From an uncultured virus (IMG/VR IMGVR_UViG_3300012041_000021) (taxonomy: Duplodnaviria > Heunggongvirae > Uroviricota > Caudoviricetes), in the IMG/VR virus record IMGVR_UViG_3300012041_000021: 64,000 bases of DNA. One strand, given 5' to 3'. The position numbers and the translations under genes were made by a program. Shown here one piece after another: positions 2,307 to 63,843 of the stretch. How positions within the stretch are numbered: position 1 is the stretch's first letter; each line of letters starts with the position of its first letter. The notes under the pieces are model-generated. The model ran no database searches and was not told the DNA's origin. It saw only the letters and a list, made by a program, of their open reading frames with translations.

Positions 2307-5099
2307 TTAATTCTTGACATTTTTGTCAATACTGTTTCTAAAGCTATTCTCTTTTGAAGTTTGCATTTGCTCTCTCTTGATTTGAATATCTTCAGCTCTC
2401 ATTCTAAGCTCTTCGTCAATCTTCTTCATTTTAGCTTCTTCTGCTTTTGTCTTTGTCTCTAAAGCATTTTCTTTCATGGAAAGTTCTCTGTCTTTATAAT
2501 CATTGTCAAGAGCTTGTTGAGTAGCCTCATTGATTTGAGCATATCCGCTTTCTGCTGCTTGATTAGCAGTAGCTCTTCCAAGTGCGTTGATTCTTTCTGC
2601 TTCTATTCTAGCCTCTCTGTCTAAAGCTGATTCAGATGCTTTAAAGTCTCTTTCTGCTTGTGTCTCTTGAGCCTTAGCTTGTAATTGTTTGTCTACTAAT
2701 TGTTGTTCGTGGTCTCTTTGAGCTTGAGTTTCTTTCTGTGTATTTTCTCTTGATTGTCTAGCAACTGCAACTAATTCTGTGAACGTGTCTGCGGTATACA
2801 TTTCTGCATATCCTAATACGTCTGCTCCTAAAGTATTTGTTTTTAATAGAGTATCTTTGAAGGTCTCTATCTCTCTACGCTTCTTAGGGTCGTTAACAGG
2901 TGTTAAACTTAATCTTCTTAGAGGGAAATCCGCGTCGGTCAAGTTCATGTAATGTTTATCTCCATCACTTGCTGTGAATACGAAATCAACGTCTATGTAT
3001 TCTTTTTGGCAATATTGAGCTACAGCTAAATGTAATTCCATAGCTTTTGTTCTAGCTATCGACATGTCTGTAAAGATATCTGCTGTTGCATCATATTGTG
3101 CTTCTGCTCCTTGTTGTACTCCGGTTGCTGTTTCATAAGTGGTTGCTTCTCCTAATCTTTGTGGAGTAAAACCTACTTGCTCTAAAGCTTTTTGGAAGTA
3201 GTAGTTTGACAGTTGAATACGACTGTTTATTTGTTTGTCAAAAGATACATCCTGAACCATGAAAGTATTCATGTTCTGCGCTCCTTCTAAATTCTGTTTC
3301 TTAGTATCTAAAGGTACGAAGCCAATGTCTTTAGCTAAAGAGTGTAATTTCTCTAAAGATTCTTCAATCGTTCCGTGGTCTTTGTACTCTGAAGGTAAGA
3401 AGTTAATGTCAAATAAGAAGAACATTCCAATCTCTTTTTCAAGTAAATTGAAAATCTGATTTAAACAGATGTTATAACCAATTTGATATGGTCTTAATCT
3501 CTGCGCCATACCATTAGTTATGATACCTGCTACAGGAAGTTTAACGTCAAATATGTTACTGTCTCCTTTTATTTGGTATGGAAGTGGTTCGATGTCTAAG
3601 TATAAATCTTCTGATAAGAATGAATTACCTGCATTAATTTTAATTCCTTTCCATATTTCCGGCACGTAAAACTCATACATTGTGTTATCCTTTAACTCCT
3701 CTTTTCTTAAATCAGAAAGGGCTTTATTGGATACTTTTTTAATCTCATGAGCTTCTATGAATTCCGGTAACAGTTCATCTGTTACAATCTCTGTAGTTGA
3801 ATAACCTTGTTTAGTGGTGTAATTTAAGAACCACATCTTTTTCCAACTTCTCCAATATGCTTCAGTTACTTGCAATAAGTCCGTTCTTACAGTGATGTCG
3901 TCTCTTCTGTGTTGACTATATCCATAACCTAAGTAGTTATTGTTTTGGAAAGGGTGTAACCATGAAGGTACTCTTTGTTCTCCATCCGGCGTGTCTATAA
4001 CATTTTCCCCCATAGGGATGTCAAGAGCGTCCTGCATTTGAAGTCCTAAATCGTAATCATAGTAGTTGTGGAAAGGTAGTAATTGGTTTTGACCGAAAAA
4101 GTGACTGTTCCAAGAGCTAGGTTTTGCATTATCTCTTGCGTTCCCGGCTGCTTCGTATTTCTTTTGCAGGTCTTTAATTTGAATTGCAGTCATTAAGTGA
4201 CCGTACCTTTTAGTAATGTCTGAAACAGAAATGTAGTGAATCCTTCCTACATACTCCCCGTCTTGTGGGTTTTCTGCGTTTACGTCTTTTGAGAAGAATG
4301 TTTCCAAAGGAGACCATCTTTCCGGTTTGTAATAATCATATCCTACGTAGTAGTGTCTGAAGAATCTCCCGGTAAGTAAATAATCCTCCATTTCAGTTCT
4401 ATCTAGCTTATCTAGTTTGAATCTGTCTTGGTCTTTTTCTAAAGTGTGTTCAGCCCATTCAGCCGCTTTAGTTTTGAAGTTTTTGGACATTTCTTTTTCA
4501 ATGACTTCAGGAGGAAGGATTTTAGCCTTTTCCTGTTCGACCATTTCCATGTACTGTTGCTTCTCTTCTTCGGATTTAAATTCTTGTCCCGTTGGGTTTA
4601 TCCCCATTCTTAAAAGCTCTAGTTCAAGTTCTTTTTTGAATGTCTCTGTGGCGAATTCTTGCGTGCGTCTAGTTCTCTCTCTAAGATAATCATTCTCTGA
4701 AATTTCATCAGTAGTGTCTATCTTAAAGTTGTCCTTTTGTTTAAGCCACTCTCCTACGATTTTTCTAACTAAAATTCCAATGAAATCATAGTGCTTAACG
4801 AAGGTAGGTATCCCAACGCCATCTCCTAATTCTTTAATCCTGCCTAAAATACCGTCGTCTTGAATACCATAATCTGAATATACAAGTCTTCCTTCGACCA
4901 TTTTGTAATAGTCTCTAAAGTGTGAGTTTTCAGCTAATTGTGATATACCTATGGATTCCAAAGCATCCATATTTAGATGCTTAAATGAATCCTTTTTCTT
5001 GGTGTTATCCGATACGGTTTGTGCGGGTAGCGAATTAGTGTGTATATTTGTAGAGCCCAATCCGTCATAAAACGGGTGGTTTTCGATTCCTGTACTCAT
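2307..5099 (-). CDS. Portal protein, crAss-like
   Basis: 930 aa next to terminase; long C-terminal coiled coil; size and synteny typical of crAss-like portals. Confidence 0.8.
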   Translation of the reverse strand: MSTGIENHPFYDGLGSTNIHTNSLPAQTVSDNTKKKDSFKHLNMDALESIGISQLAENSHFRDYYKMVEGRLVYSDYGIQDDGILGRIKELGDGVGIPTFVKHYDFIGILVRKIVGEWLKQKDNFKIDTTDEISENDYLRERTRRTQEFATETFKKELELELLRMGINPTGQEFKSEEEKQQYMEMVEQEKAKILPPEVIEKEMSKNFKTKAAEWAEHTLEKDQDRFKLDKLDRTEMEDYLLTGRFFRHYYVGYDYYKPERWSPLETFFSKDVNAENPQDGEYVGRIHYISVSDITKRYGHLMTAIQIKDLQKKYEAAGNARDNAKPSSWNSHFFGQNQLLPFHNYYDYDLGLQMQDALDIPMGENVIDTPDGEQRVPSWLHPFQNNNYLGYGYSQHRRDDITVRTDLLQVTEAYWRSWKKMWFLNYTTKQGYSTTEIVTDELLPEFIEAHEIKKVSNKALSDLRKEELKDNTMYEFYVPEIWKGIKINAGNSFLSEDLYLDIEPLPYQIKGDSNIFDVKLPVAGIITNGMAQRLRPYQIGYNICLNQIFNLLEKEIGMFFLFDINFLPSEYKDHGTIEESLEKLHSLAKDIGFVPLDTKKQNLEGAQNMNTFMVQDVSFDKQINSRIQLSNYYFQKALEQVGFTPQRLGEATTYETATGVQQGAEAQYDATADIFTDMSIARTKAMELHLAVAQYCQKEYIDVDFVFTASDGDKHYMNLTDADFPLRRLSLTPVNDPKKRREIETFKDTLLKTNTLGADVLGYAEMYTADTFTELVAVARQSRENTQKETQAQRDHEQQLVDKQLQAKAQETQAERDFKASESALDREARIEAERINALGRATANQAAESGYAQINEATQQALDNDYKDRELSMKENALETKTKAEEAKMKKIDEELRMRAEDIQIKREQMQTSKENSFRNSIDKNVKN

Positions 5100-50241: not shown

Positions 50242-50928
50242 GTGGAAAAAGAAGATAGAAGGTGTTTTGTATACAGGCATAGAAGATTAGACACCAATGA
50301 AATTTTCTATATAGGAAAAGGCACAACAAGTAAAAAATTTTTAAATTCTGAATCCGATAAGAAAAAATTCGTAAGAGCGTTTTCTAAAAGAAATAGAAAT
50401 CAATGGTGGGTTAATATAAGTAAATTAGGTTATGAAATAGAGATATTAAAGACTAATCTTACTGAAGACGAATCTAATGATTTAGAAGAGTTGTTAATAA
50501 CTACTTATGGTAGAAAAGATTGTTGTGGAGGCACTTTAGTTAACTTAACTGATGGAGGGGAAGGAGCTATTGGTCGTATTATGAGTGAAGAGCAAAAACA
50601 AGAAATAGGTAAGCGCAACTCAGGGGTGAATAATAAGTGGTTTAAAATAGCCTCTGAATTACATCCTATGTACGGAAGGATAGGAGAATTAAATCCTTAT
50701 TTTGGCAAAACTCACTCGGAAGAAGTAAGAGAAAGTATGAAGAAACCTCATCTAAGTGCTAGAGGTAAAGGTCATTTTAGGTCTAAAGTGGTTTTACATT
50801 TATTAACAGGGATTTTTTACGATTGTGTAAGAGATGCAGCAGAAGCATTTGGCTTAAATTATAGCACGTTAAAGAATAATTTAAACGGAACAAATAGAGT
50901 TAATAAAACAGATTTTATAATTATTTAA
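50242..50928 (+). CDS. GIY-YIG homing endonuclease with NUMOD3-like repeats
   Basis: FVYRH...FYIGKG, LVNLTDGGEG, HPMYGR / NPYFGKTHSEE. Confidence 0.85.
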   Translation: MEKEDRRCFVYRHRRLDTNEIFYIGKGTTSKKFLNSESDKKKFVRAFSKRNRNQWWVNISKLGYEIEILKTNLTEDESNDLEELLITTYGRKDCCGGTLVNLTDGGEGAIGRIMSEEQKQEIGKRNSGVNNKWFKIASELHPMYGRIGELNPYFGKTHSEEVRESMKKPHLSARGKGHFRSKVVLHLLTGIFYDCVRDAAEAFGLNYSTLKNNLNGTNRVNKTDFIII

Positions 50929-50996: not shown

Positions 50997-51854
50997 ATGG
51001 AAAAAGAATATCAAGTTACATTTAAAGGTTTTAAAACATCAAAGCAAGCTGAAGAGTTTGCAATGTGGTACGCAGGAAGTGGAGAACAAGATGTCTGTTT
51101 ATGGTTAGAGGAACATACAGACATTACTTCTGCAAATACTAAGAGTGTTAAAATTAAAGAAAATGGAAATATTATTGTAGAAATAAATCCTTTATAAAAG
51201 AGATATGAAAAAAGTAATTTTAGGTTTATTAGTATGTTTGAGTTTAGGCTCATGTGCTAGATGGTCAAACAGAGTTGACGCAAACGGAGGAGTATTTGGG
51301 TCTTACACCGGAAATTGGATTGTCATTACTTATTCCGGCAATCACATTACAGATGTTTATAAAATGCAAGATGTGATGGTTCAATCAGAAGAGGGTAGTG
51401 ACGGTTGGTTATTTGTAACAGAAGGTAATGCGGTTCATGTAGGAGGTAATACAAAAGCTATTCGAGTTGATAATGAGGATGCTGCTAAATGGAATGAATA
51501 TGTAGAATATCATTCAGAGTTTACAGATTTAGATTACCACGCTTATAGGAAAGAGTTAGAACAGCCTGACTACGAACTTAAAAAAATTAAAAGATAAATT
51601 AAAAAGCGGAGCGCATGAAAAAATTTGTAGTAGGTTATCTAAACTTTTATGATAACGAGATTCTTCTTCTTAAAGTAGAAGCAGAGTCAAGTTATGAAGC
51701 TGTTAAGAAAGCAATGGTCGAGTTCTGTACCACAGAAGAAGGTAGGTTAGAAGAGTTAGAGTGGCAAGCTAATGAAGAGTATCCTGATAATTTTAATGAT
51801 TTGTCTGACATGCTTTATAATTCTGATACAGCGATAAATGTAATTGAGATTTAA
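50997..51854 (+). other. Three small CDSs including a lipoprotein (51205-51597, LGSC)
   Basis: Promoter TATATTTG at 50970 suggests the first ORF starts at ATG 50997. Confidence 0.6.
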
Positions 51855-51859
51855 AGCTT

Positions 51860-52425
51860 AAACTACTTACTGAAGATAAATAGTCATTTATAAACTAAAT
51901 ATGGGACAGCAGAATCCAACTGCTATTAAATGATAGTCATGCTAAGATGGTGTTATTTATTGTAAGATACTTAATTATACTCTAAAGGAATTGTAAGCTC
52001 CGAGATTGTTAAAAGCTTAGATATAATAAAAGTATTCCACTTAGAAATGGATAAGTAGTTTTTAAAAAGTAGAGCCGCCTTTCTTTAAATAGAAATAACT
52101 TCGTTAAGGCACGAGTGGGGTGCGGCTCTTTAAAATATAGGCTAAACAGCGAATCTTTGTAAAGCGAATGTGATAAGGTGGTAAGATTCAACTAGAAAGC
52201 CATTTTTGAAATTTACATAAAGATACGCCCTAAACCCTGATAGAAACTTTACAGTAATGTAAAGGATGGTACGACATGTATGAGATAAGGTTGTCTTCGC
52301 TATTGAGAAATAGCACCATCGGGAGTTCTCAGCAAGTAGAAGTAAACCTGAAAGAAATGGAAGGAGCTTAACTACGTGACCCTAATCATAGAAACTTGCT
52401 TCGGCATTCGTAATGATGGGTGCTA
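51860..52425 (+). ncRNA. Large multi-domain structured ncRNA candidate (~570 nt)
   Basis: Long-range stems plus GNRA (GTAA, GAGA) and C(UUCG)G tetraloops on the plus strand; no plus-strand ORF. Confidence 0.65.
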
Positions 52426-52453
52426 ATAGAATAATTAACCAATTTAAATTAGA

Positions 52454-53413
52454 ATGAGAAAAATTCTTATCTTATTGGCGGCATTGCCGCTTGTATTTAC
52501 TTCTTGTACGAAAGAAGAAAACCCCACAGAAAGTGGAACAACAGCTTCAGTAACGCACAGAGGATGTGCTTCACATGAAGTTCATGAACAACAATTACGA
52601 GAAAATCCTACTCTAGCTCAAAAAGAGCGAGAAATTGAAGCTTTCACTAAACATGCTATCGAAACAGGTCGTCTAGTTAACGGAAAGATTGAGATTCCGG
52701 TAGTTGTGAATGTTTTGTGGAGAACTTCAGCAGAGAACATTTCAGATGCTCAAATTCAGTCACAGATTGACGTTTTAAACAAAGACTTCAACGGTGCTAA
52801 TGCAGAGTTTAACAACATCCCTCCGGCGTTTGACGGGTTGCAAGCCAATGTAGGTATCTCCTTCGTTTTAGAGAAGGTTGTTCGTAAGCAGACAACTAAA
52901 GTATCGTGGGGAACTGCGGACGCTATGAAGAAAGACACTAAGCGGTTTGGCGGAATTGCACCAACAACACCTAGCACACACCTTAATCTTTGGGTTTGCA
53001 CAATCGGTGGTGGTATCTTAGGGTATGCTCAATTTCCGGGCGGTAGTTTAGCCACTGACGGAGTTGTTGTAGACAGTCATTATTTCGGTAATATCGGGAC
53101 TGTATCTTCTCCTTATGGCGCAGGACGTACAGCCACTCACGAAGTAGGACATTGGATGAATCTTCGTCACATTTGGGGAGACACAACTTGTGGAACGGAT
53201 TATGTAGCTGATACACCGACTCACAACGCCGCTAACTACGGTAATCCAACTTATCCTCACTATAGTACTTGTACAGGAACACCTATCGAAATGACCATGA
53301 ATTACATGGATTATACGGACGATAAAGGTATGTACATGTTCTCTAACGGTCAGAAGGACAGGATGTTATCTGTCTTTGCTCCGGGCGGAGTGAGAAATTC
53401 ATTCGCACAATAA
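52454..53413 (+). CDS. M43 (pappalysin/ulilysin) zinc metalloprotease, lipoprotein
   Basis: Lipobox FTSC, RGCA Cys-switch-like propeptide, HEVGHWMNLRHIWGD, Met-turn MNYMDY. Confidence 0.92.
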   Translation: MRKILILLAALPLVFTSCTKEENPTESGTTASVTHRGCASHEVHEQQLRENPTLAQKEREIEAFTKHAIETGRLVNGKIEIPVVVNVLWRTSAENISDAQIQSQIDVLNKDFNGANAEFNNIPPAFDGLQANVGISFVLEKVVRKQTTKVSWGTADAMKKDTKRFGGIAPTTPSTHLNLWVCTIGGGILGYAQFPGGSLATDGVVVDSHYFGNIGTVSSPYGAGRTATHEVGHWMNLRHIWGDTTCGTDYVADTPTHNAANYGNPTYPHYSTCTGTPIEMTMNYMDYTDDKGMYMFSNGQKDRMLSVFAPGGVRNSFAQ

Positions 53414-53479
53414 GTTAAATTTGTAAATACAGGCATAAGCTAATGAGAAAAAGCAACTAAGACCCTGATTTACATGGTA

Positions 53480-53569
53480 GAAGAGGAAGTTCAATTGGAG
53501 AAACAGTAGCGTTCCGAAAGAGGTCAGCTCTTGCGCTAAAGGTTGGGGGTTCGAGTCCCCCTCTCTTCG
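53480..53569 (+). tRNA. tRNA-like RNA with 17-nt hairpin insertion in the anticodon loop (identity unassignable)
   Basis: Acceptor GAAGAGG/TCTCTTC, D-arm GTTCAATTGGAGAAAC, T-arm GGGGG-TTCGAGT-CCCCC, discriminator G, no encoded CCA. Confidence 0.75.
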
Positions 53570-53587
53570 CAAAATAAATTAAATAAG

Positions 53588-55017
53588 ATGGAAAGACCTA
53601 AATTAGAAGATTTTTACGACCAAAGTGACCCAAGAGGTATATCATCAAGTGAGCGTGACGAGTACATGACAGCACTTAAAGTGTATGAAGGTTGGAAACG
53701 TAAGCGGTATGAAGATACTTATAAGTATAATCCTATTATGGAAGTTCCTATGCCTATAACAGATAATACACCCGAAACACCTCTTGAAGCCTTTATCGCA
53801 GAGATGACAGAAGGTATGGATAATCCTCAAGCTAGAGTAGCTAAACAGAGAGGTATCCTATTAGGAGTTCAGTGGCAAAAAGAAAGGATGTACACAGAAG
53901 ATGACTTAAAAGCAGCTCATTGGAATGGGTGGGCTCAGAGAGAACAACTTGATAACCTACATTTCCCTAACGGTCTTGATTACGAGGAGAAAGAAGAATA
54001 TGTTTTTAATGAATGGTTAAAAAATACTAAATAACTATGAAAATACAAATTGATGAAAAGTACCATTTAGAAAACGATGGTGCTAAAGGATGCTCTCTAG
54101 TCTTCTCGGAAATTCGGGAAGTAAAGAAACTAGACAAAAAGACTAAACAACCTACCGGAGAATTGGGAGAAAAACTGCATCAAGATACTTGGTATTTCCC
54201 TCACAGTAAGATGGCTTTGGAGAAGTATACTGAACTTACCGGACAGGACGTTGATTCTTTGGAAGAGTTTATTTCTGTTACTAAAACACTGACAGAAACT
54301 TTAGAGAAGATTTACAAGCAGTTTCACGAAGCAAGAATGGAATTTTTTAAATAGTAGATATGGTAAACAAAGTAACAATTGAAGAAGAACCGACTTTATT
54401 TTTTGACATTAAAGAATGTTCTATAGAAACTGACGAAGACCACAGAAAAGGGTCAAGCTATTTTAGAACAGATATTATTGAGTTCAAAGAAGAAGATAAG
54501 GAATATTATCCTAAAATAGAAAACTTTGAACAGTACGTAGGGACTTGGCAAACAAATACAATTATTGACGACCATGAATACGGAACAGATGAAAAGTTCA
54601 GTGTATTAACAAGAGTGGAGAAAGTAGAAACAGTTAGTTATAAATGGGTAAATAAATATGAGTGATTACGAAGCACACAGAGGAAGGTTAATTCCTCAAT
54701 TTAGATTAGAAGATGAGTCCGATTTAAACTATTTAAATAGGGTAGCGGAGCAGGAAGTCACTGAAGAGGAGTACAACGACTACGATGGTATTGAAGAAAC
54801 ACTTAGTGAATTAGATTTGTACGAAGATTTCTTCTATGTAAACGGTACTCTCTATAAAAATGTAGACCACGTAGAAGCGAGTCCCTATCACGCTCAAAAT
54901 TTAGAAGGAAATGATATTAATGGATACTCTTATTTTATGATGTTCTATAATGGAGGAACTTGCCTCTCTGAAATGATTGAAAATGGTTTAAACAAATTAA
55001 ATAAAAATGACAAATAA
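53588..55017 (+). other. Four hypothetical CDSs
   Basis: ORFs ending 54034, 54354, 54665, 55017; the first likely starts at ATG 53588 rather than inside the tRNA. Confidence 0.65.
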
Positions 55018-62936: not shown

Positions 62937-63843
62937 ATGGAAAGCTTTAAAGCGTATAGACACCGGAATAATCCACAGGAAAAACTTCTACATGACAAGT
63001 TTTTGGAACAATATATTAACGAAACTTATCTAGATTTTTTAATATTTCCTGCCGAAGATGGGGATGACGGTATGTTTATCTCCACCGACACATTAAGTAA
63101 AAGAGAACAGAAAATTGTCTTAAGTACGGTGCAATGGTTAGGTAGTCCTCTAGGTAGACAGTTTTTAAGTAGTTGCGGATATAAATTAGAAAAAGATGGA
63201 GAATAAATTATGGGGAGTATATTCTCCCGAAGATGAACTATTAGCTGTTCACTCTACAGAAGATGGCGCAGAATTAAATTTCGGTAGATATTTAAGACAA
63301 CATGGAGAAGGGTTTTACGTAGATATTGTTGTAGTGCATGACTAAGTATTATTTAACAGAACCGCAAATTAATTTCATCTTTTCGCACAAATATTTGGTA
63401 GTAGATAAAAAACGCTTTATCTTTGATGCCGAGAAAATAAAACTTTTGAGGAAGTTGTTTAAAAAAAGTAAGTATTATAAGTAATGGTCATAATAGATAA
63501 GATAGTAATGTCTGAAGAAGACAAGGAGAAAATAAAGATTGGTAATTGGTATGTTTCAAAAAAAGGGATACGTACTGCGGAGAACTCATTTCCGCAAGGA
63601 ACAAAGTTCAGGATATCCGCATTCAGGGAACAACATAATCCGGCTTTATTTACATACTCTTATGTGCATAGAGCTCATGTAAGAAATGAGTTGATAATAG
63701 AAATGTATTGTCCAATTGGAGAGCTACACACTTCATATCACTCAGAAAGATTCTTTGAAGAATTTGAAGAATTGTCTTATAAGATAAAAAGATTTTCTCT
63801 TTTCGGTTATATTGTCGATATTTACAAATACAAAATATGCTAA
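62937..63843 (+). other. Hypothetical CDSs; a further ORF runs off the window end
   Basis: ORF track. Confidence 0.55.

Follow-up and report, generated by a model that had tools for sequence, protein, structure and literature searches.

We examined a window of 64,000 nucleotides (nt; the whole stretch of DNA that was analysed) from an uncultured virus of the Caudoviricetes (IMG/VR record IMGVR_UViG_3300012041_000021), in which a 599-nt gene-free gap at 51855-52453 lies between an open reading frame (ORF) of 79 amino acids (aa; 51615-51854) and a peptidase gene (52454-53413). The gap probably comprises two tandem genes for folded noncoding RNAs, here named RNA A and RNA B, which lie on the plus strand like the flanking genes and have a hairpin between them, a reading to which we assign a probability of roughly 0.8. 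That a real family of structured RNA genes is involved is nearly certain, and it is likely that its product is a stable RNA acting in trans. Going by sequence comparison, both families appear to be absent from Rfam, and B belongs to a large family confined to phages, with more than 100 members in IMG/VR (at least 107 among the matches listed). The original prediction, which was made from the letters of the DNA, had described a single ornate RNA of about 570 nt and had offered several adjacent RNAs as a fallback; the single RNA gave way to A, a hairpin and B, and the fallback was borne out, as A and B are different families that occur apart.

No plus-strand ORF of at least 40 aa is present in the 599-nt gap, and stops, mostly TAA, occur throughout all six of its frames, so that recoding cannot open a frame. 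Covariance models of the 3′ domain (R1) and the central domain (R2) of B were built from 27 relatives with the window left out. Across the 64 kilobases (kb), R1 matched 52323-52429 (43.4 bits, E = 1.8e-10) and R2 matched 52238-52342 (32.6 bits, E = 2.4e-5), and no other credible match to either model was found on either strand. Weak matches to R1 and R2 at 63543-63639 on the minus strand (E = 0.11 and 0.76) stem from a stretch that nearly repeats the beginning of the core word described below and look like chance, possibly inside a coding region. When applied to 100 sources, R1 and R2 gave 97 and 95 matches, respectively, the lowest few being loci that share a 16-mer by chance.

The features of the gap, and one gene downstream of it, are as follows.

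51860-52066, plus strand: RNA A, about 205 nt, with a closing stem of 10 base pairs (bp), an inner block, a hairpin and a U-run.
51860-51869 (AAACTACTTA) with 52052-52061 (TAAGTAGTTT), plus strand: closing stem of A, 10 nt, 100% complementary, inverted repeat I17.
51937-51969, plus strand: conserved inner block of A, in alignment A7.
About 52036-52053, plus strand: hairpin of A beside the 3′ strand of the closing stem, followed by the U-run.
52071-52129, plus strand: branched hairpin between A and B, closed by AGAGCCGC (52071-52078) and GCGGCTCT (52122-52129), present in the minimum-energy fold.
52139-52430, plus strand: RNA B, whose members share a common plan of seven elements.
52139-52226, plus strand: 5′ domain of B, with a hairpin whose loop is CTAAACAGCGAA (52142-52153); the same elements head most members.
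52155-52163 (CTTTGTAAA) with 52212-52222 (TTTACATAAAG), plus strand: long-range stem H2 of the 5′ domain, recognised by eye.
52209-52226, plus strand: conserved word AAATTTACATAAAGATAC in the 5′ domain.
52230-52247, plus strand: leader word CTAAACCCTGATAGAAAC, shared with relatives of the variant (W-type) form of B.
52247-52322, plus strand: central domain of B, matched by R2 and covarying in alignments A6 and A8.
52247-52264, plus strand: GNRA hairpin CTTTACA-GTAA-TGTAAAG of the central domain.
52265-52270 with 52315-52320, plus strand: stem GATGGT/ACCATC of the central domain.
52273-52295, plus strand: inner hairpin of the central domain, its loop containing UGAGA.
52299-52314, plus strand: inner hairpin GCTATT-GAGA-AATAGC of the central domain.
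52323-52339, plus strand: core word GAGTTCTCAGCAAGTAG, the most conserved stretch of the family and the insertion site of an HNH gene in relatives.
52336-52430, plus strand: 3′ domain of B, matched by R1 and covarying in alignment A5.
52336-52339 with 52372-52375, plus strand: stem round a variable arm of the 3′ domain.
52374-52382, plus strand: conserved ACGTGACCC of the 3′ domain.
52380-52382 and 52385-52389 with 52413-52420, plus strand: closing stem CCC..ATCAT/ATGAT.GGG round the UUCG hairpin TGC-TTCG-GCA (52397-52406).
52418-52426, plus strand: tail GGGTGCTAA of the 3′ domain.
53480-53569, plus strand: transfer RNA (tRNA)-like gene of 90 nt, matched by the Rfam tRNA model at 37.5 bits and not called by ARAGORN.

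Relatives and covariation of RNA B

Relatives were recruited from several collections. A blastn search of the 599 nt against a cultured-phage collection gave no match. The sequencing runs listed as containing the stretch are all of DNA and trace it to freshwater sediment and groundwater, and contigs from four DNA runs agreed with the window letter for letter over their overlap, yielding no variants. One contig of 317 nt (run X4) shared two short blocks of the gap's 5′ third in another context and is a relative of A. When one shared block of the 5′ third was used as an exact word, it recovered three IMG/VR loci of a single phage lineage (L009-L011), which match the gap in patches over its full length and carry a 1.4-kb ORF-free stretch with tRNA genes. 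The shared word AAATTTACATAAAGATAC recovered 24 loci, six of which were true relatives and 18 chance matches or members of another family, and the second shared word, a core 16-mer (GAGTTCTCAGCAAGTA), recovered at least 120 IMG/VR loci. Among the 120 listed, 100 carried both downstream motifs, seven more were recognised by the models, and 13 were matches by chance. The exact word CTTTACAGTAATGTAAAGGATGG found nothing in IMG/VR, and an exact word of A found nothing in metagenome contigs. Members of family B were collected in this way through exact core words, and merging those more than 93% alike left 89 sequences. Four alignments were then scored: A5 (the 3′ domain of B), A6 (the central domain of its main form), A7 (RNA A) and A8 (W-type B).

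The common plan of B runs from 5′ to 3′ through seven elements: (1) a hairpin with an 11-12-nt loop, YUAAACAUUGAA, whose stem varies (AGGU/ACCU, AGC/GCU, ACC/GGU, AGUCGU/ACGACU and others); (2) a long-range stem round a variable arm, ending in AUUUACAUAAAGAUAC; (3) a GNRA hairpin; (4) a long-range stem that encloses a hairpin, whose UUGAGAAA loop bears UGAGA, and a variable arm; (5) a nearly invariant single strand, AAUGAGUUCUCAGCAAGUAG, containing the core (GAGUUCUCAGCAAGUAG); (6) a stem round a further variable arm, followed by ACGUGACCC; and (7) a closing stem round a variable hairpin, followed by GGGUGCUAA. The 5′ loop is flanked by a stem of at least 3 bp in 81 of the 89 members, compared with 34 of 89 when its 3′ side is displaced.

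Covariation was strong in both conserved domains. In A6, both sides change in all 17 of 17 pairs, 96.7% of the cells are paired, and 304 cells are doubly changed compared with 61 in shuffles; none of 500 shuffles reached the observed value in four measures, and 11 of 500 did so in the fifth. In A5, both sides change in 13 of 18 pairs, with 75 doubly changed cells against 15 and no shuffle out of 500 reaching the observed value. Sliding the partners in these two alignments lowered the paired fraction to 30-55%. The frequent G-U pairs would be C-A on the other strand, which places the RNA on the plus strand and indicates constraint at the level of RNA.

These results bear out most of what the original prediction had drawn. 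All of the pairings that it listed exist where it placed them or nearby, and most are real plus-strand helices; its structured plus-strand RNA with GNRA loops in a phage is upheld by the covariation and the G-U pairs. The proposed collection of homologues yielded covariation in several alignments: for RNA A in the stem that closes 51860-52061, and for RNA B in the GNRA hairpin, in GATGGT/ACCATC and in the closing stem near 52380-52420. The pairing of GAATCTT (52151-52157) with AAGATTC (52183-52189) is present but probably unused, as it overlaps both H1, which is formed in 81 of the 89 relatives, and H2, which was seen by eye only. The recurring TAGAAA linker is likewise genuine: the 599-nt gap contains five copies against a mean of 0.65 in base shuffles, and one of 2000 shuffles reached five.

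The suggestion that the RNA belongs to no assignable known class also held, as did the search against Rfam that had been proposed as its check: Rfam 15, searched over 51400-53800, matched nothing in the gap, whether at the family cut-offs or with E relaxed to 10, and its only match nearby was the tRNA-like gene. The models for group I and II introns, RNase P RNA, transfer-messenger RNA (tmRNA) and tRNA gave none within 51855-52453 at E up to 10, and A and B were unmatched in 49 related loci at E up to 0.1-1. The GOLLD and ROOL RNAs, which had been cited as examples of large phage RNAs, fared no better, their Rfam models matching nothing in the window at E up to 10 or in the relatives at E up to 1. 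Further known classes that were considered, namely RNase P RNA, T-box-like tRNA binding and mimicry of ribosomal RNA, had no Rfam support and are not claimed.

Some further observations concern the family as a whole. The GAGA hairpin at 52299-52314 resembles the family's conserved loop hairpin by eye; it is left unpaired by R2 in the window and was omitted from the structure of A8. An interaction of AGCA in the core with UGCU in the tail, considered by eye, was dropped, both being invariant by ascertainment and one core variant (L026) lacking a compensating change. One locus (L078) has a second, more divergent copy of B at 1456-1696 directly behind the first (R2 76.7 bits, R1 37 bits), a tandem duplication. 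Directly 5′ of the B hairpin, a module of about 50 nt, ATAGCTAAGCTGTGTAAAGC...AGAAGCTATAGG, occurs in at least 10 loci (L038, L062, L064, L065, L076, L091, L105, L110, L113, L167 and L027), and another shared block lies 3′ of A in L027 and L059. The related RNA islands are mosaics of several modules.

RNA A and its separation from RNA B

RNA A is shared with L009 and L011 and with the 317-nt contig of run X4, and a word from its main form recovered 25 IMG/VR loci, 18 of them distinct. Alignment A7 comprises 21 sequences, including the 18 distinct relatives of the main family, and has 23 invariant columns. Over the closing stem and inner hairpin, 87.1% of the cells are paired, both sides change in eight of 17 pairs, and 30 cells are doubly changed compared with 11; no shuffle out of 500 reached the observed value in three measures, and six and eight of 500 did so in the other two. 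In the relatives, the corresponding closing stem has another sequence (AAACCAACAC with GUGUUGGUUU in L018, for example), and that of the window's type is a wholly different 10-bp sequence, whose 10 of 10 positions pair when the register is moved by one column. A has no match in Rfam (E up to 10 in the window; also in the related loci) and sits among tRNA arrays and tmRNA genes. The oriented L018 locus holds two copies of A, at about 240-470 and 1470-1680, which begin with the same 5′ word and have protein genes between them.

The hairpin at 52071-52129 is of a different standing. The stem formed by AGAGCCGC and GCGGCTCT exists, as had been predicted, but no similar sequence was found in any relative, and its fold alone is unremarkable (z = -1.41; 15 of 200 shuffles fold equally well).

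One RNA of about 570 nt, the headline of the original prediction, could instead take in A, the hairpin and B; it would work as a single unit and resemble GOLLD or ROOL, with a variable 5′ part, a conserved 3′ part and perhaps the capacity to assemble with itself. In keeping with this idea, the 5′ loop motif of B follows A within about 250 nt in eight of the 25 A loci, and A stands directly in front in several B loci; in L027, a tRNA-like element lies between the two. Yet the motif is absent downstream of A in the remaining 17 of 25 loci, and most B loci have no A in front and other sequence upstream. A ends in a closing stem and a U-run, like a unit of its own, the 5′ domain of the window's B looks degenerate, and the GOLLD and ROOL models did not match. 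We regard a single RNA as improbable. A and B occur apart and are therefore independent genes that often stand in tandem.

The variant form of RNA B

The central domain of the window's B scores low on R2 and resembles that of a subgroup (L039, L044, L081, L085, L087 and L145), which begins with CUAAACCCUGAUWGAAAC in place of the 5′ hairpin. This leader word, or a one-letter variant of it, heads all seven W-type relatives seen in IMG/VR, and among the 45 loci that it recovered from metagenome contigs, 18 are W-type and carry the word exactly, apart from A or T at a single position. Alignment A8, which holds 16 distinct W-type members and the window, shows the same three helices as the main form, with 94.5% of the cells paired, both sides changing in 11 of 17 pairs and 40 doubly changed cells against 10; none of 500 shuffles reached the observed value in four measures, and 241 of 500 reached the count of extra pair types.

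In L039 (535-1199), the two forms stand on either side of an inserted gene. A main-form 5′ and central domain ends at GAGUUCUCA and is followed by a gene for a 161-aa HNH_3 protein (632-1117) and then by a variant domain with a full core and 3′ domain, and a 9-nt repeat of the first half of the core (GAGTTCTCA) flanks the insert. A main-form central domain also lies upstream of the W-type copy in L085, and, as a weaker hint, the main-form 5′ loop motif occurs about 740-750 nt upstream of five of the 18 metagenome W-type copies (L194, L198, L202, L204 and L206). Conserved functional sites are typical targets of homing endonucleases, and the insert can be read, from its arrangement, as a putative free-standing homing-endonuclease cassette that supplies a copy of the target which presumably resists cleavage. 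No endonuclease gene adjoins B in the window, and in it a main-form 5′ domain (52139-52226) is fused to the variant from 52230 onwards.

The same arrangement would also arise if the variant central domain (52230-52322) were the 3′ part of a mobile intron-like cassette and the window's B a rearranged, nonfunctional remnant. The repeats of GAGTTCTCA round the L039 insert, the upstream main-form sequences in L085 and the five metagenome copies, the U at the end of the insert's 5′ side and the G at the end of the insert, and the low scores of the window all agree with such an origin. Against it, L039 gave no match to a group I or group II intron model at E up to 1; the three helices of the main form recur in the variant domain and covary among 17 sequences; and the W-type form is found with no partner upstream in L087 and immediately behind a tRNA in L214. 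We hold an intron-like remnant to be unlikely, and prefer to regard the window's B as a variant form of the RNA.

A pseudoknot between the UAAAC word and the bases in front of the core is proposed with modest confidence from the pattern of complementarity: three pre-core bases and the first G of the core are able to pair with the four that follow UAAA in the loop or leader. In the main form, CAUU pairs with AAUG at four of four positions in 67 of 80 members, and in the W-type form CCCU pairs with UGGG at three of four in 18 of 19.

Genomic setting, expression and comparison with known systems

The window is a phage-like contig with genes densely packed on the plus strand, and the neighbours of the gap include a PolB-type exonuclease, a NUMOD3 protein, a B12-type ribonucleotide reductase and an M43 lipoprotein peptidase. 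NUMOD3 is a DNA-binding module of homing endonucleases, and the ORF with this motif lies at 50242-50928 on the plus strand, 1.2 kb upstream of the RNAs. The M43 metallopeptidase gene, which has a lipoprotein-type signal sequence (52454-53413, plus strand), separates RNA B from the tRNA-like gene. It looks like an inserted accessory gene, because its IMG/VR relatives (42-60% identity) sit in unrelated contexts. Relatives of this peptidase (six loci) and of the 79-aa ORF (two loci) had no such gap and no similarity to it, and no relatives of a 130-aa ORF near the gap were found.

The original prediction had noted that large phage RNAs often lie near tRNAs; the window has one tRNA-like gene, about 1 kb downstream of B and behind the peptidase gene. 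ARAGORN called no tRNA or tmRNA in the window, which is without a tmRNA. The Rfam model places about 22 extra bases in the anticodon region of the tRNA-like gene, and over-long tRNA matches (99-136 nt, 28-44 bits) also occur in the related RNA islands of L027, L038, L054, L096, L110, L175 and L179. ARAGORN placed a tmRNA on the strand of B, starting 4 to about 370 nt beyond it, in 10 of 60 B loci, and tRNAs within 1.2 kb in 10 of 60; Rfam found a tmRNA in seven of 20 loci.

This proximity could mean that B serves the tmRNA or tRNA behind it in cis, as a leader or a processing module, and has no separate role. Most loci, though, have no tmRNA behind B; the window's B precedes the lipoprotein peptidase gene at 52454, and the tmRNA-like gene of Cellulophaga phage phi14:2, described below, is about 670 nt away. 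The size of B, its invariant core and its targeting by homing endonucleases would likewise be unusual for a leader, and we give this explanation little probability beside a gene for a trans-acting RNA.

The family is nearly absent from bacteria: a 20-mer search of the scanned bacterial species genomes gave three matches only, one a chance match to a coding region and two in likely phage contigs within metagenome-assembled genomes, and led to no host assignment. One cultured phage was found through a main-form member, the crAss-like Cellulophaga phage phi14:2, which has a flavobacterial host. Its B lies at 2911-3360 on the plus strand (R1 94 bits, R2 79 bits), with the same order of words as the family from the UAAAC hairpin to GGGUGCUAA, directly behind g004; the tmRNA-like gene that comes next has a score of 46 bits, slightly short of the Rfam cut-off. 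In a transcription study of phi14:2, the g004-g005 and g005-g006 junctions give rise to rightward transcripts at levels above most protein genes, which are present from the earliest time point with no later fall and are called long noncoding RNAs of unknown function by Drobysheva et al. (bioRxiv 10.1101/2020.03.07.982082). The B of phi14:2 is placed in the first of these junctions, and abundant rightward transcription is in print for this one member. The GenBank record of this phage carries three hypothetical minus-strand ORFs of 34-39 aa at KC821624.1 3106-3431 (L156 2488-2813), the first two overlying RNA B and the third just past its 3′ end; RefSeq removed all three in 2020 and added no RNA gene.

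Several points weigh against the reading of the gap as two RNA genes, or against parts of it. The folding energy of the whole gap on the plus strand is not above chance (z = -0.30, with 36 of 100 shuffles as good; z = -2.29 on the minus strand), so that support for the RNAs is comparative. The members of B were collected by core words, and the invariance of these words is thus partly a product of selection; alignments fitted to models lean towards the structure of the model, and shuffles ignore relatedness. The link of A to its main family rests on an alignment with no independent E-value. The B of the window is near the lowest scores of its family (R1 43 bits against mostly 60-104; R2 33 against 56-122 in the main form) and might be a copy in decay. 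One change at the level of the two classes is the evidence for the pseudoknot, and in the window the degenerate loop of the 5′ hairpin (CAGC) departs from the family consensus and fits one of four pairs, compared with three of four for the variant leader (52235-52237 with 52321-52323). Judging by this difference, the hairpin domain looks like a leftover, and the active molecule may have its start near 52230. The 5′ domain is probably vestigial, and the functional form of B could be either the whole of 52139-52430 or only about 52230-52430. Expression data for B come from the phi14:2 relative only, and the placement of its B in the g004-g005 gap assumes that g005 is the since-removed feature at 3590-3910, an identification made here because it fits the gene numbering.

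The same folding energy, together with the A+T-richness of the gap and its many short inverted repeats, is what would be expected of ordinary spacer or regulatory DNA (promoters, terminators or an origin) with hairpins by chance. Such a spacer is already contradicted by covariation that is specific to the plus strand and includes G-U pairs in four alignments, as well as by the model match at E = 1.8e-10 and the existence of a transcribed relative. A scan of the gap, in which Bacteroidota promoters are not covered, found no promoter-like or terminator-like site on the plus strand. Its sigma-70-like consensus, subject to the same limit, gave two weak promoter matches on the minus strand (52163-52134 and 51986-51959), and sigma-70-like matches in the region of the gap were fewer than in its shuffles. 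Chance hairpins in a spacer are thus scarcely credible, and we retain the two tandem RNA genes.

Under this reading, A and B would be stable trans-acting RNAs and not cis regulators, and the enzymes that trim the tRNA and tmRNA next to them may define their ends in other phages. B would fold compactly through the pseudoknot between the UAAAC word and the pre-core bases, and would act in the takeover of translation or RNA metabolism by the phage, most likely by binding a protein, the ribosome or a tRNA or tmRNA. The B of the window would be the variant that travels elsewhere with a homing-endonuclease gene, having replaced the usual central domain, so that the 5′ domain would survive as a remnant. 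That its function is connected with translation, tRNA or tmRNA is put forward tentatively. That B is a new functional class of phage RNA, compact and pseudoknotted, made early and kept, and acting on the translation apparatus or on the phage's own tRNA or tmRNA, is a bolder proposal that we consider rather unlikely; if true, B could be a ribozyme, could act as a decoy that draws off a host nuclease or a ribosome factor, or could assemble from RNA alone, and its invariant core would matter enough for homing endonucleases to specialise on it.

Large structured phage RNAs in tRNA islands, such as GOLLD and ROOL, are a standing puzzle with striking architectures, to which the present work adds a pair of families that share this niche, here in phages whose hosts look like Bacteroidota. 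The frequent placement of B directly before a phage tmRNA is a concrete lead, and a covariance model would correct the annotation of such regions, which are filled with tiny hypothetical ORFs or left blank. Small stable RNAs of this kind of setting have a precedent in phage T4, whose tRNA gene cluster encodes RNAs C and D, of unknown function, together with the free-standing homing endonuclease SegB, which promotes inheritance of the RNA region. RNAs C and D are smaller, the hosts and phage groups differ, and we know of no relation in sequence or structure between them and A or B. A catalogue of 10,006 candidate structured RNAs, mined by covariation from IMG/VR and RNA viruses, may list parts of A or B under a number (PMC10690425); the core word and two contig names were not found in six of its supplementary files, three further files lying outside the search. 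Beyond the phi14:2 transcript, a literature search, partial as regards supplements, found no published description of A or B as families.

Compared with GOLLD and ROOL, A and B are alike in niche (phages, near tRNA genes), in their helices with GNRA loops, in having no linked protein and in their unknown function. GOLLD has a conserved 3′ region and a variable 5′ region, and these phage RNAs lie near tRNA islands; at 210-500 nt, B is much shorter than the sizes given for ROOL env-120 (659 nt) and GOLLD (more than 800 nt; PMC12286853). The hosts of B look like Bacteroidota, whereas those of GOLLD and ROOL are Firmicutes or Actinobacteria. Judged on its sequence, B would be another class of the GOLLD and ROOL kind and a member of neither family. 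The phi14:2 transcript, in contrast, belongs to the same family as B by both covariance models, by strand sense and by the tmRNA-like gene downstream. It is of the main form, about 450 nt with long variable arms, whereas the B of the window has the short variant central domain and a degenerate 5′ domain, and the consulted portions of the phi14:2 paper report transcription alone, without a family, structure or function. The family has well over 100 members and unusually clean covariation, and its presence in phi14:2, a cultured phage with a studied transcriptome that infects Cellulophaga baltica, makes the function of B addressable at the bench.

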